DNA from: Dehalococcoidia bacterium
GTDB taxonomy: Bacteria; Chloroflexota; Dehalococcoidia; DSTF01; WHTK01
Direction: 5' to 3'
Length of the DNA stretch: 64,000 nucleotides
NCBI GenBank assembly: GCA_965225815.1
Contig: CBDDBP010000004.1
Location: 85,074-149,073, forward strand
Positions 723 to 61,957 of the stretch are shown piece by piece. Position numbers and translations under genes: made by a program. Under the pieces are notes generated by a model. It saw only the letters and a program-made list of their open reading frames with translations, was not told the DNA's origin and made no database searches. Each line of letters starts with the position of its first letter. Position 1 is the first letter of the stretch.

Positions 723-1037
723 TCCCCATCATCTCACGCACCACACAACATGCGTCATTGCGAGGAGACGCCAGCCGACGCGGCAATTTCACGCCTTCAC
801 GTACGCCGCAACGCCGCGCATCCAACTCAACGGCACCCCATCGTCGAAGCTGTAGGTTTCAACCTGCAGACGCCCCTACACCCACAACCCGTAGTCTCCA
901 AACGCCAGCACGCGTACCGGAGGACGCAGCCCGAAAGCCGCCATCGCCGCGCGGAGCAAGGCCCACGTAGGGACGCAGCTTTAGCTCCGTCCGCAATGCC
1001 TCTACGCAGTCCACCCCTGACCTCTAACCCCCGACCC
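723..1037. repeat. Intergenic GC-rich repeat module between murC and murG. It is a diverged copy of the unit seen at 3345-3995 and contains the 28-bp core GTAGGGACGCAGCTTTAGCTCCGTCCGC at 967-994.
   Basis: GTCATTGCGAGGAG(A/G)CGCCAGCCGACGC(G/C)GCAAT occurs at 754-787, 3430-3463 and 3757-3790. A hairpin CTGTAGGTTTCAACCTGCAG lies at 850-869. The core motif recurs at 3649, 3963, 5765, 9067, 9283, 9499 and 10535. Confidence 0.8.
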
Positions 1038-5731: not shown

Positions 5732-5870
5732 GCCGCACCCCCAACGCTCCTGGCCGTCCCCAACCGTAGGGACACAGCTCTAGCTCCGTCCGCGACGCCC
5801 TAACGCCGTCCACCAACGCTGCCTGCTCGTCGCCTAACCTCCAGCGCCTCATACGGCTTCCAGCCCATCC
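5732..5870. repeat. Short intergenic repeat between murD and mraY carrying the core variant GTAGGGACACAGCTCTAGCTCCGTCCGC (5765-5792).
   Basis: Same core motif as in the other dcw intergenic regions. Confidence 0.7.
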
Positions 5871-6842: not shown

Positions 6843-7267
6843 GGACTCACCCCACTGTAGTCAGACCGCTTTGGTGAGAGCCGGCTTGGCTCGCCGAAAC
6901 ACAGCGAATTCGTTCTGATTATGCCTGGTACTCTGGCGTCAGCAGGGGAAGTGGGGGCACAGCCCCCGCGGGGGGAGTCTGAGGGGTCTCCCCGCAGGTT
7001 AACTTTGATAGATGGGCGAAGCGCACAAGCCCACCCGACAGGAAGGGCGCCGGTCGCGCAGCCTCTACGCCCCGTCCAGCCGTCTTCAGTGGGGTCTCGG
7101 GGCCAAGCCCCGGCTTCAGTTATAGAGCCCGCAGGCCGCGCAGGCCTCAACGCCTCGTCCAGCCGTCTTCAGTGGAGTCTCGGGGCCAAGCCCCGGCTTC
7201 AGTTATAGAGCCCGCAGGCCACGCGGTCCTCAACGTCTCGTACTGAATTGATGACCTCATGGCAACA
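6843..7267. repeat. Intergenic repeat region between mraY and ftsI. It holds an R2 element (~6945-7070) followed by two tandem 82-bp R3 units (7073-7154 and 7155-7236).
   Basis: The R3 unit CGTCCAGCCGTCTTCAGTGG(G/A)GTCTCGGGGCCAAGCCCCGGCTTCAGTTATAGAGCCCGCAGGCC... is duplicated head-to-tail. It carries the hairpin GGGGCCAAGCCCC. Confidence 0.85.
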
Positions 7268-9004: not shown

Positions 9005-9894
9005 CCCCGCCCGTCATGCGACGCCGCAGTGCCCAGGTCCGTATCGCCGAGCGCAGCAAGGCGACCGTAGGGAGGCAGCTTTAGCTCCGTCCGCTGCGCC
9101 TCGTAACGGCGATCAACGTCGAGGCCAGCCCCACCAACCCCAGCGGCGTCAGTACGGGCGCAGTGCATCGTGAAGTCCGCCGAAGGGCCCCTGCGCGGAG
9201 ACCCTGAGCGGTGCCCCCTAAGGGTTAGCAAAGTAGATGCCGGAGTGCCCAGGTCCGTGTCACTGAGCGCAGCAAGGCCACCGTAGGGACGCAGCATTAG
9301 CTCCGTCCACAACGCCGCATGCCCCTCATCTAACGCAAACTCAGCCCCACCAACCCCAGCGGGGTCAGAAGGGGCGCAGTGCATCCTGAGCTCCGCCGAA
9401 GGTTCCCTGCGCGGAGACCCTGAGCAGTGCTCCTTCAGGCTTAGCAAACTAGATACGCGAGCGCCCAGGTCCGTATCGCCGAGCGCAGCAAGGCCACCGT
9501 AGGGACACAGCTTTAGCTCCGTCCGCAACTCCTCATGCCCCTCATCCAGCGCAAACTCAGCCTCACCAACCTCAGCGGGGTCAGTAGGGGCGCAGCCCCT
9601 GCGGGGGGAGTCTGAGGGGTCTCCCCGCAGGTTAGCTTTGATAGAAGGGCGAAGCGCACAAGCCCGCCCGAAAGGAAGGGCGCCGGTCGCGGAGCTAGAC
9701 GCCACGGCGTCAGCTACACCAACGCTCTCGGCGCCGCCTTTAGTGGGGTCTCGGGGCCAAGCCCCGGTTTCAGTTAGCAAAGCAGGACGCGCAGCCCTTC
9801 CTCGACAAACCGTCCTCAAGCCAAAGCGCACCGGAGCACCTGTCATCTCAACTCCCACGCCCTTGCCCCGGCGCCCTCTCGTCTGTCCTCTAGA
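9005..9894. repeat. Intergenic minisatellite between ftsI and ftsL. It holds three tandem copies of a ~216-bp unit (starting ~9029, ~9246 and ~9461), then an R2 element (~9590-9700) and an R3-like element (~9720-9800).
   Basis: The 28-bp core occurs at 9067-9094, 9283-9310 and 9499-9526, a period of 216. The GTGCCCAGGTCC anchors lie at 9029, 9246 and 9461. The units carry a variant hairpin GCCGAAGGGCCCCTGCGCGGAGACCCTGAGCGGTGCCCCCTAAGGG. Confidence 0.85.
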
Positions 9895-10326
9895 TCACGG
9901 CAGCGGAAGCGCCCGGTACAACGATTGCCACCACGGCTCCACGTCAGTGCTCTCAGCCAATGGCTCAACCAGTGGACGCGGCAACAAGACCCCCTCGGGA
10001 GCCTCAACCTCAACCGACAGGTAGCTGACGTTTCGCCCCTGGATCATTCCCAGTTGCTCTCGTGCCACCCGCTCAGTGCGGTCCAGTGATGTCAGCTGTG
10101 CTACCTCAGCCTGCAGGTCATATACCTCAGCCTTCAAGGCGATTCGCTCCGCCTCCAGGCGCTGCAGTTGTTGACCCGTGTTTGCCGAGCTGCTCGATTG
10201 CACAACCTGGAGAAGCGCGATAACCGCCGAAATCGCAAGGGCGACGGCTATCGCGCGACGGGGCCCCCAGGTTGCTGCCGATGGCGCCTCTAAGGACGCC
10301 GGACCAAGGCGATCGAGTGTTGCCAT
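9895..10326 (-). CDS. ftsL: Cell division protein FtsL-like (septum formation initiator family)
   Basis: 143 aa with one TM helix (AIAVALAISAVIALL) followed by a coiled-coil segment (LQRLEAERIALKAEVYDLQAEVAQL). It lies between rsmH and ftsI. Confidence 0.55.
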   Translation of the reverse strand: MATLDRLGPASLEAPSAATWGPRRAIAVALAISAVIALLQVVQSSSSANTGQQLQRLEAERIALKAEVYDLQAEVAQLTSLDRTERVAREQLGMIQGRNVSYLSVEVEAPEGVLLPRPLVEPLAESTDVEPWWQSLYRALPLP

Positions 10327-10934
10327 GCCAACACCTCACGCCGTAATCGTGGACCGCAGCCCACGACGTGATGTCTCAAACCTCTCGTCGAGACGAAGCT
10401 CTAGCTCCGTCCACAACGCCTCGTGCCTCTCATCCACACCGACGCCAGCAGCCTCGGAATCCACACAGTCCATATCAGACGAGCTCGGAACGTCTCCGCC
10501 CAGGTCCGTATTGCCGAGCGCAGCAAGGCGGCCGTAGGGACGCAGCTTTAGCTCCGTCCGCAACCCCTCATGCCCCTCATCCAGCGCAAACTCAGCCCCA
10601 CTAACCTCAGCGGCGTCAGTAGGGGCGCAGCCCCTGCGGCGGGAGTCAGAGGGGTCTCCGCTAAGGTCGTCTGATAAAGGGGCGGAGCGCACAAGCCCAA
10701 CCGTCAGGGCGGGCGCAGGTCGCACAGCCCCAAACGCCTCGTACCCGCGATCAAACGCAACCTCGGCCACACCAACCCCAGCAGGGTCAGTAGGGGCGCA
10801 GCCCCTGCGGCGGGAGTCTGAGGGGTCTCCCCTCAGGTCGCTCAGAAGAAGAGCGGAGCGCACAAGCCCAACCGATAGGGCGGGCGTAGGTCGCGTAGCT
10901 TCAAACGCCTCAACGAAGTCCAACCCCACCACGC
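10327..10934. repeat. Intergenic repeat region between ftsL and rsmH. It carries the core motif (10535-10562, and a partial copy at ~10389-10412) and two R2 elements ~179 bp apart (~10616 and ~10795).
   Basis: GTCAGTAGGGGCGCAGCCCCTGCGGCGGGAGTC(T)GAGGGGTCTCC occurs twice. The ORF 10336..10938 (-) is built entirely from these repeats. Confidence 0.8.
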
Positions 10935-11879
10935 TCACGCCGCCAGTCGCTCCGCCGCCCGCAACTTCGCGCTACGGCTCCGCGGGTTTGCCGCGACTTC
11001 CTCCCGCGATGGCGTCACAGTCCCCTTCGTAACCGGCTTCAGCGTGGCCTTGTGGTCACACGTACAGACCGGCTGCGATGGTGGGCAAACACAATCACGC
11101 GACTCTCGAGCAATGAACTGCTTAACAATGCGATCCTCAAGTGAGTGGTAACTGATCACCACTAGTCGGGATCCAAAGCCAAGCAGACCGTGAGCCCAGG
11201 GCAACGCCTCGGCCAGGCTGGCTAGTTCCTGGTTGACGGCAATGCGAAGGGCCTGAAACGTCTTGGTGGCGGGGTGGATTTGACTTCCAGTCCTCCGGCC
11301 CACGGCCTGCTCGACGGCTTTGGCTAGTTCGGTGGTCGTCCCCAAAGGACGGCCGTTGACAATGGCTCTGGCAATACGGCGGCTGCGCCGCTCCTCGCCA
11401 AAACGCCAGATGATATCTGCTAATTCTTCTTCCGGCGCCTCGTTCACCCAGTAAGCAGCCGTCGGCTCCTCACTCGGACCGAAGCGCATGTCCAGCGGCG
11501 CCTCCACGCGAAAGCTAAACCCCCGCACGCTCGCCAATTGGTGCGATGAAAGCCCGAGGTCGAACAGAATCCCGTTCACCGGCGCGAATCCGCCCTCGCG
11601 GCACAGCCGGTCCAGCTCTCGAAAGTTCCCCTGCACGATGGCGACACCGTCTCCGAATCGCGACAGCCGCTCCCGCGACATCTCAATCGCCCTGGGATCC
11701 GCGTCGATTCCCAGCAACGTGCCACCCGGCTTCGCAGCCTCCAGGATCGCCTCGGCATGGCCGCCACCGTTCACCGTGCAGTCCACGTAGCGGCCGCCCG
11801 GGCGCACGTCCAGCGCCGCGATTACCTCTCGCGGCATCACCGGGTCGTGCGTCACACGTGCGTCCATCACCAGCGTCAT
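10935..11879 (-). CDS. rsmH: 16S rRNA (cytosine1402-N4)-methyltransferase RsmH (MraW)
   Basis: 314 aa, MraW family, with a SAM-binding fold. It overlaps the mraZ stop by 4 nt. Confidence 0.9.
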
Positions 11880-12298
11880 TCCGATTCCAGGCTCTGCAGG
11901 AACATCGCCTCTTCGGCTCCTAACGCCGTCTCGAAATCATCTGAGTTCCAGATTTCGATACCCTCACCCGCCCCAACGACGATCACCTGGGTCTCCAGGT
12001 TCGCCCATTGGCGCAGCTGCGGTGGGATCAACACACGGCCCGCCCGGTCCAGCTCCGCTGGGAACGAACCGCTAAAGAACGCCCGGCGCATCACGCGACC
12101 ATTGCGCGTCGTCACCGGCTCGTTCATGTACAGCTGGGCTTGTCCGTCGAAAGAATCGGCCGGATAGGCGCGGATGCAATGGTCCGGCGTGCCTTGCGTC
12201 AGGATGATCCCCTGCATCAGTGCATCCCTGTAACGCGGGGGCATCGGGATCCGCCCTCGCTCGTCCATCGCGTATTCCTGCTTGCCGAGAAATAGCAT
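11876..12298 (-). CDS. mraZ: Transcriptional regulator MraZ
   Basis: The protein begins [24 protein letters not shown] (MraZ/UPF0040 duplicated domain) and runs to [10 protein letters not shown]. The start was moved to the internal ATG at 12296-12298, because the longer 165-aa ORF adds an unlikely N-terminus. Confidence 0.8.
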
Positions 12299-12339
12299 GT
12301 GCCGGGGCCCCGTCCCCCGAGAGAAGCTCCGGATCGTCC

Positions 12340-12405
12340 GGTATTTCTCCCATATCTTCCCACAAGCTCCCATATCCTACCATTCAAATATCCACTGTCA
12401 ACCAA
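12340..12405 (-). promoter_or_regulatory. Candidate mraZ/dcw promoter with MraZ-box-like direct repeats
   Basis: On the minus strand there is TTGACA (fwd 12396-12401), a 17-nt spacer and TAGGAT (fwd 12374-12379). Three TGGGA direct repeats at ~10-bp spacing (fwd ~12347-12372) follow, resembling the GTGGG-type triple repeats bound by MraZ. Confidence 0.4.
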
Positions 12406-14697: not shown

Positions 14698-15201
14698 ATG
14701 ACGATTCGCGCCGCTGTCCTAACGCTCAGCGACAAGGGTGCCGGCGGCCAGCGGGTCGATACCGCCGGCCCAGCCGTAGCATCCCTACTGACTTCGATCG
14801 GCGCCCTCGTCGTTGAAACGGCGATCCTGCCCGATGACCGTGAAGCAATCGCTTCGCAGCTCCGCAGCTGGGCCGACGAATCCAGCGCCGACCTCATCCT
14901 AACCACAGGCGGCACCGGCCTCTCACCCCGTGATGTCACTCCCGAGGCGACCCTGGACGTGGCCGACCGCCTTGTCCCCGGCATCTCGGAGCTGATGCGC
15001 GAATCAGGCCGTAAGAGCACTCATCTGTCCTCTCTCTCGCGCTCCGTTGCTGTTACTCGGGCACGCGCGCTGATCATTAACTTGCCTGGCAGCGAGCGTG
15101 GCGCCCGCGAAAGCCTTGAAGCCATCCTCGAATTGCTCCCCCACGCCGTCGAGACGCTCCGCGGAGATTCCGGCGAAAGCCACCCCGTCGATCAGGTCTA
15201 A
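14698..15201 (+). CDS. mogA: Molybdenum cofactor biosynthesis protein MogA/MoaB family
   Basis: 167 aa with LSDKGAGGQRVDTAGP...LILTTGGTGLSPRDVTPEAT, the MoCF biosynthesis domain signature. Confidence 0.8.
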   Translation: MTIRAAVLTLSDKGAGGQRVDTAGPAVASLLTSIGALVVETAILPDDREAIASQLRSWADESSADLILTTGGTGLSPRDVTPEATLDVADRLVPGISELMRESGRKSTHLSSLSRSVAVTRARALIINLPGSERGARESLEAILELLPHAVETLRGDSGESHPVDQV

Positions 15202-50144: not shown

Positions 50145-51101
50145 CTACGGTGACGGCTCAGCGCCAGGCGCCTCATCGAATAGCTGGACGAATTGCCACC
50201 CGAAACGCCCCTTGATGCAGAGGTTCCCGCTGGTCACGTCGTGATCTAGCGGGGAGGTCACTTTGACTATCCGGTCATCCTGAACATGCAGCTCCAGCGT
50301 GCAACCAACGCCACAGTAAGGGCAGATCGTGTCCGTCTTCGTCTGACGTCCTTCGTCCCAGGTGCCCGCCTGCCGCATATCGTACTCGGACTTGAACATG
50401 AGAGACCCGGTGGGGCAGACGGCAATGCAGTTGCCGCAATACACGCAGGCCGAATCCGGCAGAGGTGTCGTGAACTCGGTTGAAACGCGAGCATCAAAGC
50501 CGCGCCCGGCGATCCCCAGGGCGAACGTGTTCTGATGATCGTAGCCGCACGCCTCGACGCACTTGTAGCAGAGGATGCAGCGAGAGTAGTCACGAACGTA
50601 CAGGTTGTTGTCCACTTTGACCGGCTGATGCACTGTTGCCGCGTTGCCATCGGTCGCGTGATGGTGCCCGGTCAAGGCGGCGTCGCGTTCGCCTTCGTTG
50701 GCTGCCGCCGCCGCCGGGCCGAACCGTGCAGGCTGAGCGGCGTAGCGCTCAAGGTACCCCTGCACCTCAGGAGGCGCGTAGGACAGATCTACTGACGACG
50801 CGAGGAGTTCTAGCACCAGGCGCCGGCTGTGCTCAACGCGCTCGCTATCCGTCTTGACGACCATGCCTGGATCAACCTTGCGGGAACATGCCGGTACTAG
50901 CGTTCGCGAGCCTTCGAGCTCTACCACGCAGAGCCGGCACGCGTTAACCGGCGTTAACGTCTCCAGGTAGCACAGCGTCGGCGTGTCGATCCCCTGCTCC
51001 CGGCAGGCATCCAGGATCGAGGTGCCCTCAGCTACGCTGACTGGTCGCCCGTCGATCGTCAGCTCCACCTGGCGTGTCGGCGCTGCAAGACGGTTGGTCA
51101 C
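50145..51101 (-). CDS. Formate dehydrogenase Fe-S subunit carrying the N-terminal domains usually fused to FdhA/NuoG (2Fe-2S ferredoxin, two 4Fe-4S, and the MopB 4Fe-4S domain; HylA/NuoG-N-terminal-like)
   Basis: 318 aa with an N-terminal 2Fe-2S (CYLETLTPVNACRLCVVE), CxxCxxCxxxCP ferredoxin motifs, and at the C-terminus ICPYCGVGCTLELHVQDDRIVKVTSPLDHDVTSGNLCIKGRFGW (the molybdopterin-oxidoreductase Fe4S4 domain). Confidence 0.8.
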   Translation of the reverse strand: MTNRLAAPTRQVELTIDGRPVSVAEGTSILDACREQGIDTPTLCYLETLTPVNACRLCVVELEGSRTLVPACSRKVDPGMVVKTDSERVEHSRRLVLELLASSVDLSYAPPEVQGYLERYAAQPARFGPAAAAANEGERDAALTGHHHATDGNAATVHQPVKVDNNLYVRDYSRCILCYKCVEACGYDHQNTFALGIAGRGFDARVSTEFTTPLPDSACVYCGNCIAVCPTGSLMFKSEYDMRQAGTWDEGRQTKTDTICPYCGVGCTLELHVQDDRIVKVTSPLDHDVTSGNLCIKGRFGWQFVQLFDEAPGAEPSP

Positions 51102-52990
51102 GAAGTCCTCCCTTTCTGAAAGACGCCCAGTTTCTCGATAGCCGACTGCACCGCGCTCGCGGCGGTCTGGCCCAGGCCGCAGATTGAAGCGTCGCGCATG
51201 ACCTGCGCAATCTCGCCAATGAGCATGACATCATCGCTTACGGTCCCCAGTGGACGCCCTGCGGCCAATCGCTGTAGAGCCTCTTCCTGTCGCTGCGTTC
51301 CAACACGACAAGGGACGCATTGCCCACACGATTCGTCACGGAAAAATGCGCCGATACGCGACACGAAACCTTCTAGGTCGGCACTTTCGGCGATTGCCAT
51401 CACAACACCCGACCCCAGTGACGCGCCGATGTCCCGCGTACCCTCGAATGTCAGCGGCACGTCCAATTCATCGGGCAGTACAAATCCGCCCGCCGCGCCA
51501 CCCAGCAGAACGGCTCGCAGGATTTCGCCAGATGGCAATCCTCCAGCCATTGCCATTAGCTCTCTTAGCGTGACGCCGAACGGCACCTCGTAGACGCCGG
51601 GACGCTGAATCGCGCCCGATAGGCAGAACAGCTTGGTACCCTTCGACTCCTGCGTTCCTGTCGCCGCATAGGCAGCTCCGCCTCGCATCACGATGTCGAT
51701 GACGTTGATCAATGTCTCGACGTTGTTGATAACGGTCGGCTTGCCGAATAGACCGACCTGCGTCGGGAAAGGCGGCTTGTTGCGAGGCTCCCCGCGGAAG
51801 CCTTCGATAGAGTTAAAGAGCGCGGTCTCCTCGCCGCAGATATAGGCTCCGGCGCCCAATCTCAACTCAATATCGAACGCGATGTCCGAGTTCATCACGC
51901 CTTGGCCCAGGAAGCCACGTCGACGGGCGGTCGCAATGGCGTTTTGCAACCGTTGGGCCGCCAGCGGGTATTCGCCGCGAAGATAGATATAGCCCCGCGC
52001 CGCGCCGGCCGCGTAGCCGGCGATCGTCATTGATTCGATGACCGAGAACGGGTCTTCCTCCATGATTACGCGATTGCTGAAGGTTCCAGGCTCCGACTCG
52101 TCGGCGTTGCAGACAACGTAGTGCGGCCGTACTGGTGCCGAAGCCACATCTTGCCACTTGCGTCCTGTGGGAAAGGCCGCTCCGCCTCGACCTTGTAGAC
52201 CCGATTCTTGAACCTCGCGAATGATCCCCGCAGAACCCAACTCGATCGCCCGCCGCAGTGCCGTATAACCGCCAGCCGCCCGATACTCATCGAGACTCCC
52301 TGGGTCGATCCGTCCAACGCGCTCAAGAAGACGAAGAGCCTGACCGTTTCGATCCAGCGTTTGGGGAGCTGATGGCGATCCCTTGCGCCGCACCGGGGTC
52401 TCCGGCGCTCCGGCGCCAGACGCTAGCTGCGCAACGACTACATCCGCGCTCGCCGGCGCAATGACCACGTCGCTCGCAGCCTCTCCTGAATGCTGGAAGA
52501 GAACCGCAGGGGCCATTTCGCAGAGACCTAGACAAGGACTGTGTTTCCACGTTACCTCGCCATTCAACGTAGGCTGGCCTGCCAGGCCTGGTTCCTGCTC
52601 TAGCGCCTGGCAAAGCTCCAGCCCTCCTGCCATTCGGCAGGCAAGGTCATCACAGACGTGGGCAACACGGGGAGGCATCGGTTCGACATAGAGCAAGGCG
52701 TAAAACGTGGCAACGCCGTAGGCCTCTGCCGGCGGGACTTCAAGACGCTGACAGATGTAATTCAGGGCGCCCGGAGTAATGTATCCGACTCGTCGTTGAA
52801 CAGCCTCCAGCGTTGGTAAGAGAAGGTGCCGTTCCTTACGGGAGTCGTACCCGCCGCGACCGAGAAACCAGTCGTCCGCCGCATTCTCGCGGCGAATCTC
52901 CCAACCCGTCTCCGGCTGGCCGAGCAACGCATCCACCGCGGCTCGTTCGGAGTCATCCGGAACGGCGTTCGGGATTAGATGTAGGTCCAC
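51098..52990 (-). CDS. NAD(P)H-dependent formate dehydrogenase/NADH dehydrogenase diaphorase subunit, a fused NuoE-like (thioredoxin-like 2Fe-2S) and NuoF-like (FMN/NAD/4Fe-4S) protein
   Basis: 630 aa. The N-terminal NuoE-like domain (VCDDLACRMAGG) precedes NuoF motifs (GGAGAYICGEETAL; ESCGQCVPCRVG). Confidence 0.85.
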   Translation of the reverse strand: MDLHLIPNAVPDDSERAAVDALLGQPETGWEIRRENAADDWFLGRGGYDSRKERHLLLPTLEAVQRRVGYITPGALNYICQRLEVPPAEAYGVATFYALLYVEPMPPRVAHVCDDLACRMAGGLELCQALEQEPGLAGQPTLNGEVTWKHSPCLGLCEMAPAVLFQHSGEAASDVVIAPASADVVVAQLASGAGAPETPVRRKGSPSAPQTLDRNGQALRLLERVGRIDPGSLDEYRAAGGYTALRRAIELGSAGIIREVQESGLQGRGGAAFPTGRKWQDVASAPVRPHYVVCNADESEPGTFSNRVIMEEDPFSVIESMTIAGYAAGAARGYIYLRGEYPLAAQRLQNAIATARRRGFLGQGVMNSDIAFDIELRLGAGAYICGEETALFNSIEGFRGEPRNKPPFPTQVGLFGKPTVINNVETLINVIDIVMRGGAAYAATGTQESKGTKLFCLSGAIQRPGVYEVPFGVTLRELMAMAGGLPSGEILRAVLLGGAAGGFVLPDELDVPLTFEGTRDIGASLGSGVVMAIAESADLEGFVSRIGAFFRDESCGQCVPCRVGTQRQEEALQRLAAGRPLGTVSDDVMLIGEIAQVMRDASICGLGQTAASAVQSAIEKLGVFQKGRTS

Positions 52991-52999
52991 GTTGGCAGT

Positions 53000-54919
53000 C
53001 TAAACCAATGCTTGGCTTGGAGCAGTTGAGAGCTTTTCTATGCGTATGGCGGCAGCCTTGAACTCAGCCGTACCGGACCGCGGGTCTGTCTCGTCAATCG
53101 TAATAGTGTTTGAGGCGACGTCATCCGGGAAATGCAACGTCATGAACGCAAGCCCAGGACGGAGGGTCGAATCGAACCTGACCGGTGCCTCGATGGCACC
53201 ACGCCGCGAAACCACCCGGACGATTTCGCCATCAGCCAACCCGAGGCGCAAGCCGTCTTCAGCGTGGATATCCAGAGATTCGCCCCTGCGCAGAGGCGAC
53301 GTGTAACCGCCTGTCTGGACGCCCGTGTTGAACGAATCGAGACGCCGACCGGTGGTAAGCCTGATCGGGTACTCCTCACTGAGCTGCTCAACCGGCCCCT
53401 CATGTTCAACGACGCTGAACGGAGCCGGCGGGCCCTCCAGAGGCTCGCTCCAAAGCCGGCCGTGGAGGAATTGGCTTCCGGGATGATCCTCCGCCGGGCA
53501 CGGCCAGTGGATGCCGTTGAGTTCCTCGAGGCGCGAGTAGCTCATGCCTCTGTGCCAGTCAGAAAGGCCGCGTAGCTCGTCCCATACGGCTTCCGCAGTC
53601 AGGTGACCCCAGTCGTGACCCATCAGCCGGGCAACTTCGCAAATCAGCTCCATATCGTCGCGCACGCCCTGAGGCGGATTCAACGCTTTGCGCACTCGTT
53701 GGACTCGACGTTCCGAACTAGTCACGGTCCCTTCAGACTCGCACCAGGAGGCGGCCGCAGGGAAAACAACGTTGGCGAGCTCAGCTGTCGCGGTAAGAAA
53801 GATGTCCTGCACAACCAGGTGGTCGAGGCCAGACAGGAGCTTTACTGCGCGTGTCGTGTCAGCCTCCGATTGGGCTGGGTTCTCTCCGATCACGTAGAGG
53901 GCCCGTAACTCACCCTCCTCCATTGCGTCGAACATCTCTGTCAGATTCTTCCCGCGCTTCGTGGAAAGCAATCGCTCGTAGACGCGCTCGAAGGGTGCCC
54001 GCTGCTGCTCGTTTTCGAGGTCGTTGCCGCCCGGTAGCCGGTTAGGCAGAGCGCCCATGTCGCCGCCGCCCTGGACGTTGTTCTGACCGCGCAGCGGCAC
54101 TAAGCCTGAACCGTAGCGGCCGATGTGTCCCGTAAGGAGCGCAAGGTTACACAGCGCCAGCACGTTATCGACGGCGTTGTGGTGCTCCGTAATACCAAGC
54201 GTCCAGCACAATTGCGCACGGTCCGCCCGGGCATAGGTGTGCGCCAGTTCGCGGATCGTGTCTGCCGGGACGCCGGTTACCTCCTGAGCGTAGTCGAGCG
54301 TATAAGGCTGGACGCACTGCTCATACTCCGCGAACCCGGTTGTCGCGTGCTGAATGAACGCCTCGTTGTGCAAGCCAGAAGCGATGATTTCGCGGCCAAT
54401 CGCGTTCGCCAGCGCGATGTCTGAACCGACGTCGAGGCCAAGCCACAGGTCAGCCCATTGCGCCGAAACGGTCCGCCGTGGGTCTACGACAGCCAGTCGG
54501 GCACCCCGGTTCACCGCCTTCATGACATGGTGAAAGTAGATAGGGTGAGTTTCGCGCGCGTTAGAACCCCAGAGGATGATGAGGTCTGCCTCTTCGGCCT
54601 CTTTGTATGAGCTCGTTCCCCCGCCTGCCCCGAATACTGCCGTCAGACCGACGACGCTGGGAGCGTGTCAAGTGCGGTTGCAGGAATCGATATTGTTGGT
54701 TCCGATGACCTGCCGGGCGAACTTCTGAGCCAGGTAGTTGACCTCGTTCGTCGCCTTGGAGCAGGAGAACAGGCCAAAGCTGTCAGGGCCATGCGCCGAA
54801 ACCGTGTCGCGGAATCCTTCTGCGGCGACAGCAAGTGCTTCGTCCCAAGTGGCCGGCCTCAGTTCCCCTCGCCTCCGGACGAGCGGCTGAGTCAATCTCG
54901 TATAACGCTTGGGCATCAC
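53000..54919 (-). CDS. fdhA: Formate dehydrogenase catalytic subunit, selenocysteine-containing (in-frame TGA at 54668-54670). It lacks the N-terminal Fe4S4 domain.
   Basis: ORFs 54668..54919 and 53000..54523 are in the same frame (54670-54523=147). Read-through gives ...NNIDSCNRT-U-HAPSVVGLTAVFGAGGGTSSYKEAEEADLIILWGSNARETHPIYFHHVMKAVNRGARLAVVDPRR, the FdhF/FdhA Sec active-site motif (cf. E. coli CCARV-U-HGPSV). The molybdopterin dinucleotide-binding C-terminus is present. A TAA at 54938-54940 closes the frame upstream, so the N-terminus is MMPKRYTRLTQPL... Confidence 0.8.
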
Positions 54920-54984
54920 ACCCCCTAGGCAATCAGCTTAGCGATGGCGCGGAGGGCAGTAAAGATTCACGGCACCAGGTAAGG

Positions 54985-55908
54985 CTATTCGACCAGACGT
55001 TTGGCGCCGCTGTACACATTCAACGAATCAGGCTTTACAAAGCCGCAAAGCGTTATGTTAAATGATTCGGCCAACTCAGCCGCCAGGCTTGACGGCGCTC
55101 CAACGGCTGCGACGACCGGGATGCGCGACACCAACGCTTTCTGTAGGAGCTCGAAGCTGGCCCGCCCACTCAGCATCAGAACGTAATCTGAGAGCGGCAT
55201 TGCTTCATGGAGGAAACGGTCACCAATCAGCTTGTCTACCGCATTGTGACGGCCAACGTCTTCGTACACCGCGACGAGATTGCCGTTGCCGTCAAAGAGG
55301 CCTGCGGCATGAAGACCACCCGTCTGTTCGAACACCACCTGCGCCTCTCGAACTCTTGCCGGCAACTCGCAGACCAGCTGCGCCGAGACCTCGAAGCCGG
55401 ATGGAATTGAGTCGCAGCCCTGGACTTCGAGTGATTCGAGCGCCGCCTTGCCACAGACGCCGCAGCTTGAGGTGGTGTAAAAGTTCCGCTCAAGGCGGGA
55501 AGAGTCGAAGACGAGGCCGGGCCGGAGCGTCACCCTGACCACGTTGAATGCCTGCTCCTCGGCTTCGTCGGTGCAGTAGGACACGTCGGCCACATCCTCG
55601 CGACCGCCGAGGATGCCCTCGCCGTACAGAAACCCCACGGCGAGCTCAAAATCGCTGCCAGGTGTCCGCATCGTCACGGCGATGCTCTTGGTGACGGAGT
55701 CTCGGCCGTCATTCCAGGTCAGACGTATTTCTAACGGCTCCTCGCCGGCAAGTCGGTCGTCAACCTCAGCCCAAGCACCAGCACGCCAACGACGGATCCG
55801 GTGGTCGATCAGTCCCCTCGGCTTGAAAGCGGTCATCGATGGTGCCTCGGATTCGTCGTTATGACGACTAGCATACCAGTAGGATCGGGCTAAGAGCGGC
55901 CAAGACAC
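54985..55908 (-). CDS. fdhD: Formate dehydrogenase accessory sulfurtransferase FdhD
   Basis: 307 aa with SSCGVCGKAALE and GLHAAGLFD...GRHNAVDK, the FdhD/NarQ family motifs. Confidence 0.85.
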   Translation of the reverse strand: MSWPLLARSYWYASRHNDESEAPSMTAFKPRGLIDHRIRRWRAGAWAEVDDRLAGEEPLEIRLTWNDGRDSVTKSIAVTMRTPGSDFELAVGFLYGEGILGGREDVADVSYCTDEAEEQAFNVVRVTLRPGLVFDSSRLERNFYTTSSCGVCGKAALESLEVQGCDSIPSGFEVSAQLVCELPARVREAQVVFEQTGGLHAAGLFDGNGNLVAVYEDVGRHNAVDKLIGDRFLHEAMPLSDYVLMLSGRASFELLQKALVSRIPVVAAVGAPSSLAAELAESFNITLCGFVKPDSLNVYSGAKRLVE

Positions 55909-55949: not shown

Positions 55950-56453
55950 CTACCAGGGCAGACCCTTCAAGCCCATCACACCCTTAAGCGACGCGATCTC
56001 GCCGGCGTGGAACGACATGTGCACCAACACCGTATCGGCTATAACCCACGCCATCGATTCGTTGCGGCCAAAGAAATCGATCGGCCTGTCGAGATCCGCA
56101 TCGGTGAGGCTATCGAGAAAGGCATCAGTCGCCTCGATTACAGCCTTACCGTATGCCTGCAACTCCGCCATGTGAGTCTGAGCCACTTCGACCCAGTCGG
56201 GGTCCTTACCTTCTTCGATACCGAGCTTCGCGGCCCACGACCCCGTCTTCAGGATCTGTTCCTTGCCCTGGATCAGCTCGTTGAAGGCCCAATCCTCTCC
56301 GGAGACGGTGTGACCGTAGATCTCACCGATTGGCCCAATGGTGGCTCCGGGCAGCCTGGTCCCGAGTGTCTTGGCATCAGTCTCTTGAATAGCCGCATCG
56401 AGATACTGGCGCGTCATGCCCAGCGTCTCCTTGATAGAATCCACTCCGTTCAT
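55950..56453 (-). CDS. DinB/YfiT-like (DinB_2 superfamily) metal-dependent protein
   Basis: 167 aa four-helix-bundle DinB-family pattern with His residues (H..E...H). Weak family call. Confidence 0.55.
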   Translation of the reverse strand: MNGVDSIKETLGMTRQYLDAAIQETDAKTLGTRLPGATIGPIGEIYGHTVSGEDWAFNELIQGKEQILKTGSWAAKLGIEEGKDPDWVEVAQTHMAELQAYGKAVIEATDAFLDSLTDADLDRPIDFFGRNESMAWVIADTVLVHMSFHAGEIASLKGVMGLKGLPW

Positions 56454-56521: not shown

Positions 56522-57562
56522 GTGCGCTTCATAGCCCATCTTTTAGTTACTTCTTCGGGGTATCGGTCCAACGGAAAGACTAGGCTCTTGGCTGAGATTC
56601 GTATCGACAACCATCTGAATGACGAGGACTTCTTCAGCAGCATGGCGGAGGACGTGCGTCAGGGCCTTACCGCTGCAGTCAAACGCCTCCAGCCCAAGTA
56701 CTTCTACGACGAACGTGGCTCAGAGCTCTTTGAGCGGATCACCGAGCTACCCGAGTACTATCCGATGCGCGAAGAGGGAGCACTCCTGGACCTGATCTCA
56801 CCACGCCTGGTCGAATCCATGGGCCCGAACGAGATCGTGGAGCTGGGTTCGGGATCTTCCACCAAGACGCGAGCGCTTCTGGACGCCGGTCGTGCTAACG
56901 GTTGTCTCAGTCGCTACGTCGCCTTCGACGTCAGCGAGTCGATTATTCGTCTCGCCATGAGCGATCTTCTGCAGCGCTACGAAGGCCTCGAAGTGAGTGG
57001 GATTGTCGGAGACTTTCTCCGCCACCTCGACAAAATTCCCGAACAGTCGGGGCGAAGGCTTGTCCTCTTCCTTGGCGGCACACTGGGCAACCTATACCAA
57101 GAAGAGCGCATCAGGCTGCTTCGCGAGATCTGCGGCTTGTTGGAGCCTGAAGATCGCTTGCTTGTTGGGTTCGACCTGGTTAAGGACAGTGCCCTGATCG
57201 AAGCTGCGTACAACGACGCTCAGGGAGTCACCGCCGACTTCAATCGAAACATGTTGAACGTCATCAACGACGGCCTGGATGGCGATTTCCAGCCCGACGC
57301 CTACGACCACTACGCGTTCTTCAACACCGAAGAGTCGCGCATTGAGATGCATCTGCGCCCTCGGTCGAAACAGGTGGTCCACCTCAAGAAGCTCGACCTG
57401 GCTGTAGAAATTGAGCCACCGCAGACCATCTGGACCGAGAGCTCCCACAAGTTCACCCGTGATTCGGTCGAGGAGATGCTCACCGCTTCGGGCCTATCAC
57501 TAAAGGAGTGGCACGCCGCGTCAAAGAACATGTTTGCCCTGGCGCTCGCAGGCCCGGCCTGA
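56522..57562 (+). CDS. egtD: L-histidine N(alpha)-methyltransferase (ergothioneine biosynthesis)
   Basis: DVRQGLTAAVKRLQPKYFYDERGSELFERITELPEYYPMREE...VELGSGSSTKTRALL closely matches the EgtD N-terminus. The start could alternatively be the TTG at 56588. Confidence 0.85.
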   Translation: MRFIAHLLVTSSGYRSNGKTRLLAEIRIDNHLNDEDFFSSMAEDVRQGLTAAVKRLQPKYFYDERGSELFERITELPEYYPMREEGALLDLISPRLVESMGPNEIVELGSGSSTKTRALLDAGRANGCLSRYVAFDVSESIIRLAMSDLLQRYEGLEVSGIVGDFLRHLDKIPEQSGRRLVLFLGGTLGNLYQEERIRLLREICGLLEPEDRLLVGFDLVKDSALIEAAYNDAQGVTADFNRNMLNVINDGLDGDFQPDAYDHYAFFNTEESRIEMHLRPRSKQVVHLKKLDLAVEIEPPQTIWTESSHKFTRDSVEEMLTASGLSLKEWHAASKNMFALALAGPA

Positions 57563-57703
57563 CGTCCGGGACCGTATCGTGGCCTCTGATGCTTCGTAAC
57601 ATTAATCACAGTTCGCTGAGCAGTAATTGATACAATGGCCGGGTCACGGGCTGGGGCACGCACTTCTTGCGCGCACAATTCCTTTTTCTCCATTTCCTCA
57701 GGA

Positions 57704-58981
57704 GGCGTCATGAGCACTATGAGACTCGGACGACCACAAACCGATCGCGCATCACTGATTGAGGCTTTCCGGGAAATCAGAGGGCAAACCGAGAAGCTCT
57801 GCGAGCCTCTCGAAACTGAGGACTACGTCATCCAGTCTGTAAGCGACGTTAGTCCACCCAAGTGGCATCTGGCGCATACGAGTTGGTTTTTCGAGCACTT
57901 CGCCCTGGCGGAAGCCCAGACAGACTACAAACGATTCCACCCGAAGTACGCCTTCCTGTTCAACTCCTACTACAACCTGGCTGGCGAATATCATCCCCGC
58001 GTCAAACGTGGGGTTCTCTCCCGGCCCACCGTCTCTGACATCTACCGATTTCGCGAACACGTGACGGAACACGTGACAGAGCTGCTGGACAGTGTCACAG
58101 ACGAAGAGCTGCAGCGCCTCGAGCCGACTATTACGCTCGGCCTCAACCATGAACAGCAGCACCAGGAGCTTCTCCTCACCGACATCAAGCACATCCTCTG
58201 GTGCAATCCGCTCGAGCCCGTCTACCGGGAGCGCGACGAGGCTCCTGCGCAGACGGCTCGTCCTATCGAGTGGTTGGAGTTCAAGGGCGGGCTCCAGAAG
58301 ATCGGCCTGGAGGACGGTGGGTTCAGCTTCGATAACGAAGTGCCGCGGCACACGCTCTTCATGAACCGCTTCCGCATCGCTGATCGGCTCGTCACCAACG
58401 GGGAATACATCCGCTTCATCGACGACGGTGGCTACACTCGCGCCGACCTGTGGCTCTCCGATGGCTGGTATACCGTCAAAGAGCAGCGTTGGGAGTCTCC
58501 CCTCTACTGGGAGAAACGGGACGGGGAATGGTGGAACTTCACCTTGGCAGGCATGCGCAAGGTCGACCCGAATGAGCCTGTTTGCCACGTTTCTCACTAC
58601 GAAGCCGATGCCTACGCGCGGTGGGCTGGCAAGCGTCTGCCAACCGAGGCCGAGTGGGAACTAGCCGCCGCATCGCAATCTATCGAGGGCAACTTCGTCG
58701 AATCGGAGCGATACCACGTTGCAGGCTCTAACAATGGCTCGACGCAGTTCTTTGGCGATGTGTGGGAATGGACCCAGAGTGCCTACCTGCCGTATCCCGG
58801 CTTCCAACCGTTGCCGGGTGCCATAGGCGAATATAACGGTAAGTTCATGTCGAACCAGATGGTATTACGGGGTGGATCCTGCGCCACGCCCGCCTCACAC
58901 ATCCGCCCGACGTACCGCAATTTTTTTCAGCCCTACCTGCGCTGGCAGTTCATGGGTATGCGGCTGGCTGAGGACGCTTAG
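57704..58981 (+). CDS. egtB: Ergothioneine biosynthesis sulfoxide synthase EgtB (DinB_2 plus FGE-sulfatase domains)
   Basis: The start was placed at MSTMRLGRPQ after a GGAGG SD. It has a C-terminal FGE-sulfatase domain (GDVWEWTQSAYLPYPGF...RGGSCAT). Confidence 0.85.
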   Translation, partial: GVMSTMRLGRPQTDRASLIEAFREIRGQTEKLCEPLETEDYVIQSVSDVSPPKWHLAHTSWFFEHFALAEAQTDYKRFHPKYAFLFNSYYNLAGEYHPRVKRGVLSRPTVSDIYRFREHVTEHVTELLDSVTDEELQRLEPTITLGLNHEQQHQELLLTDIKHILWCNPLEPVYRERDEAPAQTARPIEWLEFKGGLQKIGLEDGGFSFDNEVPRHTLFMNRFRIADRLVTNGEYIRFIDDGGYTRADLWLSDGWYTVKEQRWESPLYWEKRDGEWWNFTLAGMRKVDPNEPVCHVSHYEADAYARWAGKRLPTEAEWELAAASQSIEGNFVESERYHVAGSNNGSTQFFGDVWEWTQSAYLPYPGFQPLPGAIGEYNGKFMSNQMVLRGGSCATPASHIRPTYRNFFQPYLRWQFMGMRLAEDA

Positions 58982-59008: not shown

Positions 59009-59272
59009 TTAGCTGTCTTTCAGGTAGTCACCGTGTTCGTAGCACCAGACCCATGATTCGGCGCTGAACGGCATACGGGCGATGATCGGGTGACCGGTCT
59101 GCTTCCAGTGCTCCGTGTCGTGAGAGTTCATCGACTCGCAGCAGCCCACGAATCCGCACGTCGCGCACATACGCGATGGGCCGTTGATGCCGCAGACTTC
59201 GCACTTTTCCGTGTTGGGTGTGACATCAGCCTTGATGAACTCCGCAGAGTGGTTACATTCCGTCTTCAGCAT
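59009..59272 (-). CDS. UBP-type zinc-finger domain protein
   Basis: 87 aa with CEVCGINGPSRMCATCGFVGCCESMNSHDTEHWKQTGH, a zf-UBP-like Cys/His pattern. Confidence 0.55.
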   Translation of the reverse strand: MLKTECNHSAEFIKADVTPNTEKCEVCGINGPSRMCATCGFVGCCESMNSHDTEHWKQTGHPIIARMPFSAESWVWCYEHGDYLKDS

Positions 59273-59336: not shown

Positions 59337-60509
59337 TCAATTCCAAAGGCGCTGGCTGGCAAGTCTGGCGCCTTCAGCCATCGACTGGAACTTGGCCCAG
59401 ACCACCGTGGGATGAATCTCCGGATGGTAGCCAGCCACCGACGAAAAGCCGCAATCCGCCCCCGCGATCACGCGCTCCTTACCAACAAGATTAGCGTGCA
59501 GTTCGATCTGGTCCGCGATCCATTCTGGATGCTCGACCAGGGCTGTGGCATGACTAATTACGCCGGGAATAATCACTTTCCCTTCAGGAAGCTCAGTCTC
59601 TTCCCAAACCCGCCATTCGTGGGCGTGCCGGGCGTTGGCAACTTCATAGGAGTAGCCGGAGGCGTTGATTTTCAACATTAGGTCGACAAAGTCAGCCAGC
59701 GGGGCGTCGTTAACGCGGGGGCCAATGTTGATGCTGTAGCAAGTGTGAAAGCGCACCTTCTCAGGAGGGATGTTACTCAGAGCGTAGTTGATCACCTCAA
59801 CCTGCTTCTCTGCTGCACGCCGTCGCGCTTCCTCTGGCGCCGTGTCGTGGCCGTACATCGTAGCGAAACCCGGGTCGTCGACTTGCAAGATGAAACCCGC
59901 AGCAACGATAGCTTCGTATTCCACTGCCACGGCATCCGCCAGAGCCTGGATAAACTCATCGTCCGTCTTGTAGTGCGCATTTCGACCCGGAGCGCGCGGC
60001 GCCATCGCAGGCATAAAGCCAAGACTAACTCCCGATGCCTTCATCGCCGCTTTCAGGTTGGTGATATCGCGCTGCAGGTCAGGCATACCGGTATACGTCA
60101 GAGGCCCGCTGCAGATCAGCGGCATTCGCTCTTGCTCAATTGGCTTGCGGTTCTCACGCTGACCCTCGTACCACTGGTAGTACTCAGGAAACGCCAGCGT
60201 CTCACGCGTGGTTCCCCCTCGGCCCATCGCGATCGGCGCCCCATCTGGCGAAGGTTCGAAGCCGCCGAGACGATGCCGGATATAGGCATTGAAGCTCGAC
60301 TTGCTGATTTCGCCATCCGAAACGATGTCGACACCGCATTCAACCTGTTTACGGACGATGTCTTCAGTCGCCTCACGTAGAGTCGCCTCAAATTCCGCAT
60401 CGTCGAAAGACTGCCTTCGAAGCCGCGCCTGGAGCATGTCGAGAACGTGATGCGGTCGGGCCAGGCTGCCCACGTGCGTGGTGAGAATTCGATCCGTGTT
60501 TTGCTGCAT
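59337..60509 (-). CDS. Cobalamin-independent methionine synthase (MetE) C-terminal-domain-like protein (methionine synthase II family)
   Basis: 390 aa with THVGSLARP near the N-terminus and a UroD/MetE-like (beta/alpha)8 barrel with Zn-ligand-like residues. Confidence 0.65.
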   Translation of the reverse strand: MQQNTDRILTTHVGSLARPHHVLDMLQARLRRQSFDDAEFEATLREATEDIVRKQVECGVDIVSDGEISKSSFNAYIRHRLGGFEPSPDGAPIAMGRGGTTRETLAFPEYYQWYEGQRENRKPIEQERMPLICSGPLTYTGMPDLQRDITNLKAAMKASGVSLGFMPAMAPRAPGRNAHYKTDDEFIQALADAVAVEYEAIVAAGFILQVDDPGFATMYGHDTAPEEARRRAAEKQVEVINYALSNIPPEKVRFHTCYSINIGPRVNDAPLADFVDLMLKINASGYSYEVANARHAHEWRVWEETELPEGKVIIPGVISHATALVEHPEWIADQIELHANLVGKERVIAGADCGFSSVAGYHPEIHPTVVWAKFQSMAEGARLASQRLWN

Positions 60510-60589: not shown

Positions 60590-61957
60590 CTAGGCTGTCC
60601 TCGCCGCCTTGACCGCAGCCACTAACGGCGCATCCTCACCAGGCTGCACGGTTCGAGGATCGAGGAGCAAGAGGCCGTCCTCAATACGTCCTACAACAGG
60701 TGTTTCGCCTTGACGCATTCGTTGCGCTAAAGCCTCCAGGGCACTGCCACTGGCTGCTGGCAGCGCCACCAGTTTCGTGGGCAGACTCTCTTCCGGCAGG
60801 CTGCCGCCGCCAATCATTGAACGGCCATCGACTACCGTCGAACCTGCCCCGATCTGGCGCGAGAGTCGTCTTGCTCGCGCGGCGACGTCCGTCAGCGGCG
60901 CAGAGATCATGCGCCAGACCGGCACCTCATTCTCCGCCTCACCCCTGGCATAGTGCAGCAGCGTCGCATTCAGTCCAGCGATGCTGGCCTTGTCCATGCG
61001 AAGCGCGCGCGCCAATGGATGTCGCCGTAGCCTGGCGATGAGGTCCTTTTTGCCCACGACAATGCCCGCCTGTGGCCCCCCCAGCAGCTTGTCGCCGGAA
61101 AACGCGACCATATCCGCACCAGCACTGATACTGTCCTGCGCCGTCGGCTCAGCGCTGAGTCCGTAAGCCTGCGTATTTAACAAGCAACCGCTGCCAAGGT
61201 CGTCAAGAAGCAGAAGGCCGCGCTCGTGCGCCAGCTTTGATAGGGCCTCCAGAGAAGTCGACTCGACGAAACCTACGACGCGAAAGTTGCTGCTGTGGAC
61301 ACGCATCAGTGCGGCTGTCTCATCGCCGATCGCGGTCTCGTAGTCTCGAGCGTAGGTCCGATTCGTCGTGCCGACCTCAATGAGGCGAGCGCCACTTTGC
61401 GCCATTACGTCGGGTATGCGGAAGCCACCGCCGATTTCGACCAGCTGGCCGCGCGAAATCACGACCTCACGCTCCTGCGCCAGGGCCGAGAGCATGAGCA
61501 GCAGCGCGGCGGCGTTGTTGTTAACAGCGATCGCGGCTTCGGCGCCTGTCACTCGACAAAGAAGTGCCTCTAGGTGGTCATAGCGACTGCCACGTCCACC
61601 AGACTCGAGTTCGTACTCCAGGTTGCTGTAGCCGCGACTCACACCAGCCATCGCAGCGATTGTCGAAGCGGACAGCGGGGCGCGCCCAAGGTTGGTGTGA
61701 ATGATCACCCCAGTCGCGTTGATTACGGGCCGCAGGCTGGCGCGTAGCGATGCGTAGGCGCGCTCGGCAGCTGCCCTGGCGATTGACTCGAGCGAGACCT
61801 CGGCTCCCCCGTTGCGTAGAGCTGCGCGCCGCTCCGCGAGCTCGACGCGGACGGCCTCGGTGGCCGCGGCAACTCCTACTTCACGGGCTGCTTGCTGCAA
61901 AACATCGGCAACAAGGACGCGATCTACCGAAGGCAGCCGACGATATTGGTTCGTCAT
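60590..61957 (-). CDS. selA: L-seryl-tRNA(Sec) selenium transferase
   Basis: 455 aa with RLPSVDRVL...SLRPVINATGVIIHTNLGRAPL, the SelA signature, and a PLP-dependent fold. Confidence 0.9.
   Translation of the reverse strand: MTNQYRRLPSVDRVLVADVLQQAAREVGVAAATEAVRVELAERRAALRNGGAEVSLESIARAAAERAYASLRASLRPVINATGVIIHTNLGRAPLSASTIAAMAGVSRGYSNLEYELESGGRGSRYDHLEALLCRVTGAEAAIAVNNNAAALLLMLSALAQEREVVISRGQLVEIGGGFRIPDVMAQSGARLIEVGTTNRTYARDYETAIGDETAALMRVHSSNFRVVGFVESTSLEALSKLAHERGLLLLDDLGSGCLLNTQAYGLSAEPTAQDSISAGADMVAFSGDKLLGGPQAGIVVGKKDLIARLRRHPLARALRMDKASIAGLNATLLHYARGEAENEVPVWRMISAPLTDVAARARRLSRQIGAGSTVVDGRSMIGGGSLPEESLPTKLVALPAASGSALEALAQRMRQGETPVVGRIEDGLLLLDPRTVQPGEDAPLVAAVKAARTA

Follow-up and report, generated by a model that had tools for sequence, protein, structure and literature searches.

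We describe an operon on the minus strand of a 64,000-nt stretch of DNA from a Dehalococcoidia bacterium (contig CBDDBP010000004.1, positions 85,074 to 149,073; the whole stretch is called the window below), in which the alpha subunit of a predicted selenocysteine (Sec) formate dehydrogenase (FDH) is divided between two genes. These genes stand in permuted order, with the gene for a NuoE-NuoF diaphorase between them. This split, permuted operon is real, conserved and far more regular than chance would give, and it is not an assembly error. In our reading, the locus very probably encodes a heterotrimeric, cytoplasmic, non-bifurcating Mo/W-Sec FDH linked to nicotinamide adenine dinucleotide or its phosphate [NAD(P)], with its alpha subunit made as two polypeptides. 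The features on which this reading is built are the following, where ORF stands for open reading frame, SECIS for selenocysteine insertion sequence and Fe-S for iron-sulfur:

54985-55908, minus strand: fdhD; the longest ORF has 307 aa, and gene callers on identical loci start at 55836 (283 aa)
53000-54919, minus strand: FdhA catalytic core, 639 codons including the predicted Sec84, with Molybdopterin and Molydop_binding domains and without the Fe4S4 domain
54668-54670, minus strand: predicted Sec84 codon, an in-frame UGA that splits the core into ORFs at 54668-54919 (83 aa) and 53000-54523 (507 aa)
54639-54655, minus strand: SECIS-like hairpin GUCGUC-GGUCU-GACGGC, with the loop GGUCU at 54649-54645
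51098-52990, minus strand: NuoE-NuoF fusion, the diaphorase, 630 aa, with domains from Pfam and NCBIfam
50145-51101, minus strand: Fe-S subunit, 318 aa, with a Fer2_4 [2Fe-2S] domain, two [4Fe-4S] clusters and a MopB Fe4S4 domain
50184-50342, minus strand: displaced MopB Fe4S4 domain, residues 254-306 of the 318-aa Fe-S protein
60590-61957, minus strand: selA (selenocysteine synthase), about 6 kb upstream and 4.7 kb from fdhD, outside the operon

The division of the alpha subunit is visible in the domain content of the two proteins. In Pfam, the core matches only Molybdopterin (PF00384, 7.5e-68) and Molydop_binding (PF01568, 2.7e-23), and Molybdop_Fe4S4 is found in the 318-aa protein, at residues 254-306 (1.5e-20). 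Against the 672 positions of the model TIGR01591, the core covers positions 51-672 (636 bits, under the cut-off of 666) and the C terminus of the 318-aa protein covers positions 1-49, so that the two proteins are exactly complementary pieces of one FDH alpha subunit. Alignments of the core with PDB entries begin at residue 63 of Thermoanaerobacter kivui FdhF (504 bits) and at residue 61 of Escherichia coli FdhH; these two proteins, the former from the HDCR, are its closest solved relatives (434-504 bits). The core retains the Sec-His pair (CNRT-U-HAPS) and the PLRGQNNVQG arginine motif, aligned with T. kivui FdhF. Of the features that mark membership in the FDH family, the N-terminal [4Fe-4S] domain and the equivalent of Lys44 are absent from the core chain and present on the 318-aa protein. 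The site of the cut can be located precisely: in fused relatives (P0223, P0229 and P0238) the motif KGRFG-x-x-F-[IV]-x-x-P-x-RL-x-x-PL runs unbroken, and here the Fe-S protein ends in KGRFGWQFVQ followed by a short variable tail, and the core opens with M-PKRYT-RLTQPL (MPKRYTRLTQPL).

A first-pass annotation of this DNA had claimed an FdhA without its N-terminal Fe4S4 domain and an alpha subunit cut between its Fe4S4 and Molybdopterin domains, with the halves inverted around the diaphorase gene. The Pfam search that it had proposed and a search of NCBIfam confirmed the domains of all three proteins, and its four minus-strand genes (fdhD, the 639-codon FdhA, the 630-aa NuoE-NuoF and the 318-aa Fe-S protein) lie exactly as it had set them out. 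The in-frame TAA that it had seen closing the FdhA frame lies 12 codons before the GTG/ATG start; the probable start of the core is the ATG at 54916, with AGGGGG in front. The NuoE-NuoF gene begins 9 nt past the end of the core gene, the GTG start of the Fe-S gene shares the sequence GTGA with the stop of nuoEF, and GGGAGG precedes that start by 6 nt. Such spacing suggests an operon, whose last two genes, nuoEF and the Fe-S gene, appear to be translationally coupled; a scan for promoters and terminators was uninformative. The product of fdhD matches Pfam FdhD-NarQ (6.5e-63) and NCBIfam NF001943 (288 bits, cut-off 269) and contains the SCGVCG motif; it is a putative FdsC-type sulfurtransferase/chaperone for FDH maturation.

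A pattern scan over one genome per GTDB species returned at least 592 relatives. The locus comparisons given here rest on the best 80 of these loci, all from metagenome-assembled genomes (MAGs), many of them from soil catalogues, and belonging to Acidobacteriota, Chloroflexota, Actinomycetota, Gemmatimonadota, Planctomycetota, Methylomirabilota, Dormibacterota and Armatimonadota. Searching them by tblastn with the four window proteins, we found the order core, NuoEF, Fe-S on one strand in 65 of 66 informative loci, from at least eight phyla; the gene next upstream of the Fe-S gene is nuoEF in 71 of the 72 loci with room for it. In every locus the core match starts at query residues 1-8, and the same truncated N terminus recurs across phyla. 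The position and strand of fdhD relative to the operon vary among the loci. Between phyla, identity is about 70% for the Fe-S protein, 67% for the core and 58% for NuoEF. The closest relatives of the operon come from MAGs of Chloroflexota/Thermomicrobiales and of Acidobacteriota, and three independent metagenome assemblies contain the identical locus. When a library is clustered at 50% identity, essentially one full-length representative of the split family is left, and the next full-length relatives are fused proteins of at most 47% identity. A search of the PLSDB plasmids returned no member of the split family, only fused FdsA-type genes of less than 40% identity.

Eight loci, mainly from Chloroflexota (L012, L026, L027, L049, L054, L056, L058 and L080), carry 0.8-4.9 kb between the core and nuoEF. 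The inserted genes, which include a transglycosylase/substrate-binding protein fusion, a methyltransferase, a subtilase, an ABC transporter and a two-component system, are unrelated and lineage-specific, and the nuoEF-Fe-S pair is never parted in these loci.

The Fe4S4 domain has remained under strong constraint in its displaced position. In a family alignment of the Fe-S protein (A1), 30 of its 53 positions are invariant, among them C260, C263, C267, C295 and K297, the last being the equivalent of Lys44 of E. coli FdhH. In that enzyme (EcFDH-H), Lys44 separates the cluster from the Mo cofactor, and replacing it leaves the enzyme with no activity or with far less (PMC12176258). Such constraint, together with the strict synteny, suggests that the domain docks on the core and receives electrons from it, and thus points to a displaced Fe4S4 domain that still docks on its pterin-containing partner.

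The core gene is interrupted by a single TGA, at 54670-54668, which reads CNRT-U-HAPSVVGL in the joined frame. A TGA occupies this catalytic position in all 70 loci that cover that part of the core (66 distinct sequences). The motif DSCNRT-U-HAPS is invariant among these loci, and tblastn alignments cross the TGA in one frame, with 65-76% protein identity continuing past it. Using RNAalifold on the 66 sequences, we found a 6-bp stem with the loop GGUCU, beginning 12 nt past the UGA. Pair 20-28 of this hairpin occurs as UG in 38 sequences, CG in 19 and UA in 9, with zero mismatches, and pair 18-30 shows one compensatory double change to GC. Third-base entropy in codons +5 to +9 is at most 0.12 bits, compared with 1.5-1.9 bits at flanking four-fold sites; the loop glycine, Gly+7, is encoded by GGT in 68 of 68 sequences, whereas all four codons occur at glycines nearby. 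In the SECIS of E. coli fdhF, G23/U24 of the loop stand at this same distance from the UGA. On this comparative evidence UGA84 is to be read as a selenocysteine codon, not a stop, as the first-pass annotation had proposed from the window alone; the stem-loop that it had suggested looking for past the UGA corresponds to the conserved hairpin with its compensatory changes. Inside the core gene, at 54572-54601 on the plus strand, an archaeal C/D-box snoRNA model of Rfam gives 19 bits against a gathering threshold of 45, which is almost certainly a chance match.

These data also bear on whether the locus could be a pseudogene or an artefact of assembly or annotation, with the TGA a true stop or the alpha halves really fused. 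This suspicion arises from gene callers, which break the core into ORFs of 82 and 507 aa, and from frameshifted tblastn pieces in some long-read MAG loci (L002, L008, L015 and L025). However, the TGA and the protein identity across it are conserved as described, in 65 of 66 loci a conserved gene stands between the two halves, which are separated by 1.9 kb, the three independent assemblies are identical, and the tails at the cut behave as variable free termini. The comparative data thus already refute this explanation, which we regard as having next to no chance of being correct; nor was there any trace of the frameshift that the first-pass annotation had considered, one hiding a 318-aa gene fused to the core. 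As a separate observation, NuoEF or the core is found in shifted pieces in L002 (8111-10001; the locus is otherwise identical), L008, L014, L015, L020, L025, L057 and L058, and these shifts are most likely indel errors of long-read MAGs rather than pseudogenes.

The best solved relative of the Fe-S protein is FdsA of Rhodobacter capsulatus (6TG9, 163 bits), whose residues 24-303 align with residues 11-305. No NCBIfam model reaches its cut-off for this protein, and its homologues carry generic names in the source databases (“2Fe-2S iron-sulfur cluster-binding protein,” “YjgC,” “HndD”). The first-pass annotation had listed its [2Fe-2S], two [4Fe-4S] and MopB Fe4S4 domains correctly and had missed the loss of a further cluster, the His-Cys3-ligated [4Fe-4S] of A4/N5 type: the protein gave no match to NADH-G_4Fe-4S_3 (PF10588), and where SDHPLDCLTCAANGDCELQ of R. 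capsulatus FdsA aligns with ASSVDLSYAPPEVQGYLERY of the Fe-S protein, the ligand positions are replaced by ASSVDLS, with S102-L106 invariant in the family and no Cys. In the R. capsulatus enzyme (RcFDH), cluster A4 lies off the path from the bis-molybdopterin guanine dinucleotide to flavin mononucleotide (FMN), at the dimer interface (PMC7171172). Its loss would therefore leave the main electron chain complete, and may change the oligomeric state.

The middle gene had been called a NuoE-NuoF fusion, and Pfam and NCBIfam place 2Fe-2S_thioredx, Complex1_51K, SLBB and NADH_4Fe-4S in its one chain. It thus has one NuoE-like [2Fe-2S] cluster, one [4Fe-4S] cluster of N3/B1 type and an FMN/NAD(P)H site, and it ends about 10 residues past its sole CxxCxxC...C motif, without a C-terminal ferredoxin domain. 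Its best solved relatives are 7Q4V_B (415 bits), 7T2R_B, 9BOV_B and 9N5U_B, all above FdsB.

From these components we infer the physical assembly, electron path, metal, nucleotide specificity and physiological direction of the enzyme as follows. The core would supply Sec84, His85, the conserved Arg and the pterin-binding domains, holding a Mo or W bis-pyranopterin cofactor that FdhD would mature, and SelB would decode UGA84 through the hairpin directly downstream. The Fe-S subunit would contribute in trans the proximal [4Fe-4S] cluster A1 with the essential Lys, two ferredoxin-type [4Fe-4S] clusters and the [2Fe-2S] cluster. Electrons would pass from formate to the Mo/W-Sec site of the core, to A1 in trans, to A2, A3 and [2Fe-2S], and then to the [4Fe-4S] cluster of the NuoF domain, FMN and NAD(P)+, a chain that follows the one seen in RcFDH (PMC7171172). 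Formate oxidation is assumed as the direction.

One alternative is that the enzyme bifurcates or confurcates electrons as a member of the Bfu family (FdhF2-HylABC/HydABC type), in which formate oxidation would be coupled to the reduction of NAD+ and ferredoxin together. The first-pass annotation had likened the locus to FdhF-HylABC/HydABC rather than to FdsGBA, and part of this comparison holds: among solved structures, the core comes nearest to FdhF from the HDCR filament of T. kivui and the flavoprotein to HydB, NfnB and StnB, subunits of bifurcating enzymes, with HydB the nearest, and the separate subunit resembling the NuoG N terminus recalls HylA. According to Schut et al., the Bfu family is characterized by five clusters in BfuB and one in a separate BfuC, and its non-bifurcating homologues are without clusters B2-B5 (PMC9304861). 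Here, by contrast, just two cluster motifs occur in the flavoprotein, for one [2Fe-2S] and one [4Fe-4S] cluster, with no separate NuoE/BfuC gene; the alignment of the flavoprotein with HydB stops at residue 517 of 599 and does not reach HydB's C-terminal ferredoxin domain; and the Fe-S protein has its closest match in the N-terminal part of FdsA. Since the extra clusters B2-B5 and the separate BfuC that define the Bfu family are absent, bifurcation is highly unlikely, and the enzyme seems functionally akin to MeFDH1 and FdsABG, which are NAD(P)-linked and do not bifurcate.

With the same architecture, the enzyme could instead use NAD(P)H to reduce CO2 to formate, either to assimilate C1 units or to balance redox. 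Metal-dependent FDHs work in both directions (PMC7171172, PMC13397495), and Sec FDHs and an FdhF/HDCR-like core are typical of CO2-reducing anaerobes. Yet the taxon labels point to host phyla that consist mainly of aerobic or facultative soil heterotrophs; in the window, the operon has no genes of the Wood-Ljungdahl or reductive-glycine pathways beside it, and the NADH-driven reaction is thermodynamically unfavourable at ambient CO2. We therefore consider a CO2-reducing role unlikely and retain formate oxidation by a non-bifurcating NAD(P)-linked enzyme as the preferred reading.

Several observations weigh against this reading or its parts. The isolated hairpin folds at −8.4 kcal/mol (z = −1.6), not significantly better than shuffled sequences, and the folding energy of the 61 nt past the UGA is no better than shuffled either (z = +0.8). 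Rfam gave no match in the window at the gathering threshold, and permissively only SECIS_3, in register but sub-threshold (13.7 bits, E = 1.7), which serves as a lead only. These folding and Rfam tests are weak; it is sequence comparison, not thermodynamics, that argues for the SECIS. As to Sec machinery, no tRNA, and hence no tRNA-Sec, was found in the 64-kb window, and neither selB nor selD was seen among the window ORFs scanned. The first-pass annotation had considered that both a SECIS-like structure and the Sec machinery might be missing; the hairpin and selA are there, and selB, selD and tRNA-Sec were not seen in the window. The one exception among the 66 loci is L068 (8001-8918), from a Chthonomonadaceae MAG: nuoEF and the core are both missing from the 8 kb upstream of its Fe-S gene, which may mean that the operon is scattered in that lineage or that the contig is misassembled. 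An AlphaFold model of the Fe-S protein alone, built on the shallow alignment A1, had a mean pLDDT (predicted local distance difference test) of 53, too low to be usable.

Among characterized enzymes, a 2026 review presents MeFDH1 and the FdsABG(D) enzymes of Cupriavidus necator and R. capsulatus as the representative NAD-dependent systems (PMC13397495). MeFDH1 (Methylorubrum extorquens Fdh1AB; 7E5Z, 7VW6 and 7XQW) is likewise a metal FDH of the cytoplasm that is linked to NAD+, and NuoE and NuoF are fused in its beta subunit. A [2Fe-2S] cluster, ferredoxin-type [4Fe-4S] clusters, the MopB [4Fe-4S] cluster and the pterin site are all on its alpha subunit, and both solved chains match the window proteins. 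However, MeFDH1 has its alpha subunit in a single chain of 989 aa, with W and a Cys ligand (PMC13397495), whereas that of the window FDH consists of two chains in permuted order, with a predicted Sec ligand and without the His-Cys3 ligands. The FdsABGD of R. capsulatus and FdsDABG of C. necator (6TG9/6TGA and 6VW7) resemble the window FDH in the proposed chain A1-A2-A3-[2Fe-2S]-B-FMN and in the FdhD/FdsC-type gene nearby. They differ in that FdsA is fused (958 aa), with Cys, Mo and cluster A4 at the dimer interface (PMC7171172), in that FdsG and FdsB are separate proteins, and in that FdsD is present; no candidate for FdsD stood out in the window, although no search was aimed at it. As regards membership in the FdsABG/MeFDH1 group, the 630-aa chain shares its NuoF-like subunit with one [4Fe-4S] cluster and its NuoE-like [2Fe-2S] cluster, but neither the single alpha chain nor the A4 cluster was found in the window FDH.

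E. coli FdhH and T. kivui FdhF (1AA6 and 7QV7) share with the core the Sec-His pair and the Arg motif, and unlike it keep the Fe4S4 domain (residues 1-60) and Lys44 on the same chain. The Bfu enzymes FdhF2-HylABC and HydABC likewise have a separate Fe-S subunit resembling the NuoG N terminus and a flavoprotein of highly similar sequence; in these, however, the Fe4S4 domain stays on FdhF, and their clusters B2-B5 and BfuC are absent from the window. A MopB catalytic unit on two polypeptides is known from formylmethanofuran dehydrogenase, where the C-terminal cap (Molydop_binding) is separated in FwdB/FwdD. In the window FDH the separate piece is instead the N-terminal cluster domain, fused to another Fe-S protein. 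Judged by its genes, this FDH family differs from MeFDH1 and FdsABG(D) in four respects: the alpha subunit is split, with the cluster domain on a NuoG-like module; the order is permuted; Sec is universal; and A4 is lost. We found no curated family for the split architecture and no description of it in the full-text literature searched, with most subscription journals outside that search. The Sec-FDH catalytic subunits of Sulfobacillus have been noted to be syntenic with NuoEFG homologues, without further analysis (PMC4378227). A split, permuted NAD-linked Sec FDH is apparently so far undescribed.

Compared with the usual order NuoE/F, FeS-Fe4S4-core, the order core, NuoE-NuoF, FeS-Fe4S4 is circularly permuted. 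We hypothesize that it arose by tandem duplication of the operon followed by loss of both ends. This origin by duplication and deletion stays hypothetical, because no fused or unpermuted close intermediate was found among the relatives examined. Five candidates for such an intermediate were rejected. P0004 (392 aa, on a 6.6-kb ENA contig), a homologue of the Fe-S protein, is internally duplicated and probably chimeric, about 70 residues from the second ferredoxin cluster to the start of the Fe4S4 domain being repeated; if the assembly is not chimeric, the tandem duplication is genuine. P0271 (318 aa) proved to be a fused protein cut short, the MopB domain of P0270 and P0244 is degenerate and has no Sec/Cys-His pair, and P0229 is a stand-alone fused Sec-FDH without NuoEF. 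This last protein (L084, 6001-8715) is an FeS-Fe4S4-core fusion of 39% identity, with no adjacent NuoEF, in which the His-Cys3 ligands are also lost, and it may represent a ForC/YjgC-like lineage with an independent loss of the same cluster.

In the surroundings of the operon, a DinB_2 protein gene (55950-56453, minus strand) lies 41 nt upstream of fdhD on the same strand, between fdhD and the ergothioneine genes, and may be co-transcribed with fdhD. The ergothioneine genes egtD and egtB stand directly upstream of the FDH operon and are divergently transcribed (56522-57562, plus strand, EgtD-type Methyltransf_33; 57635-58981, plus strand, EgtB-type with DinB_2 and FGE-sulfatase). The identity of selA was established by a Pfam SelA match on the identical gene in L001-L003, and in L014, L025, L026 and L052, too, selA is no more than 8 kb from the operon. 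In the window it is not followed by selB: the next genes encode a 390-aa MetE-like protein (59337-60509, minus strand, a weak match to Meth_synt_2) and an 87-aa zf-UBP protein (59009-59272, minus strand). Where the first-pass annotation had set the cluster alongside mogA and selA, only selA is near, as the mogA-like gene (MoCF_biosynth, 14698-15201) is about 35 kb from the operon. The rest of the window is ordinary chromosome, with the dcw cluster, priA, secDF, aspS, tig, clpP and clpX. The dcw cluster for cell division and cell wall synthesis is complete (1-12400, minus strand; mraZ, mraW, PBP, murD/mraY-type, ftsW and murG), and its region stands out by a GC content of 0.63-0.67, markedly higher than elsewhere in the window, and by a more strongly negative GC skew.

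For metal-dependent FDHs, the proximal [4Fe-4S] cluster and the Lys beside it are regarded as inherent parts of the catalytic subunit (PMC12176258). An enzyme that receives both from another polypeptide would offer a test case for the docking of domain I on the catalytic body and for the tuning of the Mo/W site by the Lys and the cluster. It would also lend itself to modular engineering, as the catalytic core might be placed on other electron-transfer modules. Annotation pipelines present the locus as a “2Fe-2S iron-sulfur cluster-binding protein” and two molybdopterin oxidoreductase fragments, such that metabolic surveys may miscount split FDHs. To our knowledge, the characterized NAD-linked FDHs of aerobes all use Cys; a family that is predicted to use Sec throughout and occurs in abundant soil phyla therefore bears on oxygen tolerance, selenium demand and formate cycling.

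A more far-reaching view, which we consider unlikely, is that the split and the permutation are an adaptation to Sec decoding, that the operon acts as a selenium checkpoint and that this is the main FDH of aerobic soil phyla. The UGA stands at codon 84 of the first gene, compared with about codon 390 in a fused alpha subunit. Failed Sec insertion would thus release a harmless 83-aa peptide, not a cluster-loaded dead alpha fragment poisoning the diaphorase, and under selenium scarcity might also shut off nuoEF and the Fe-S gene by polarity. If the checkpoint view is true, soil formate turnover would depend on selenium.

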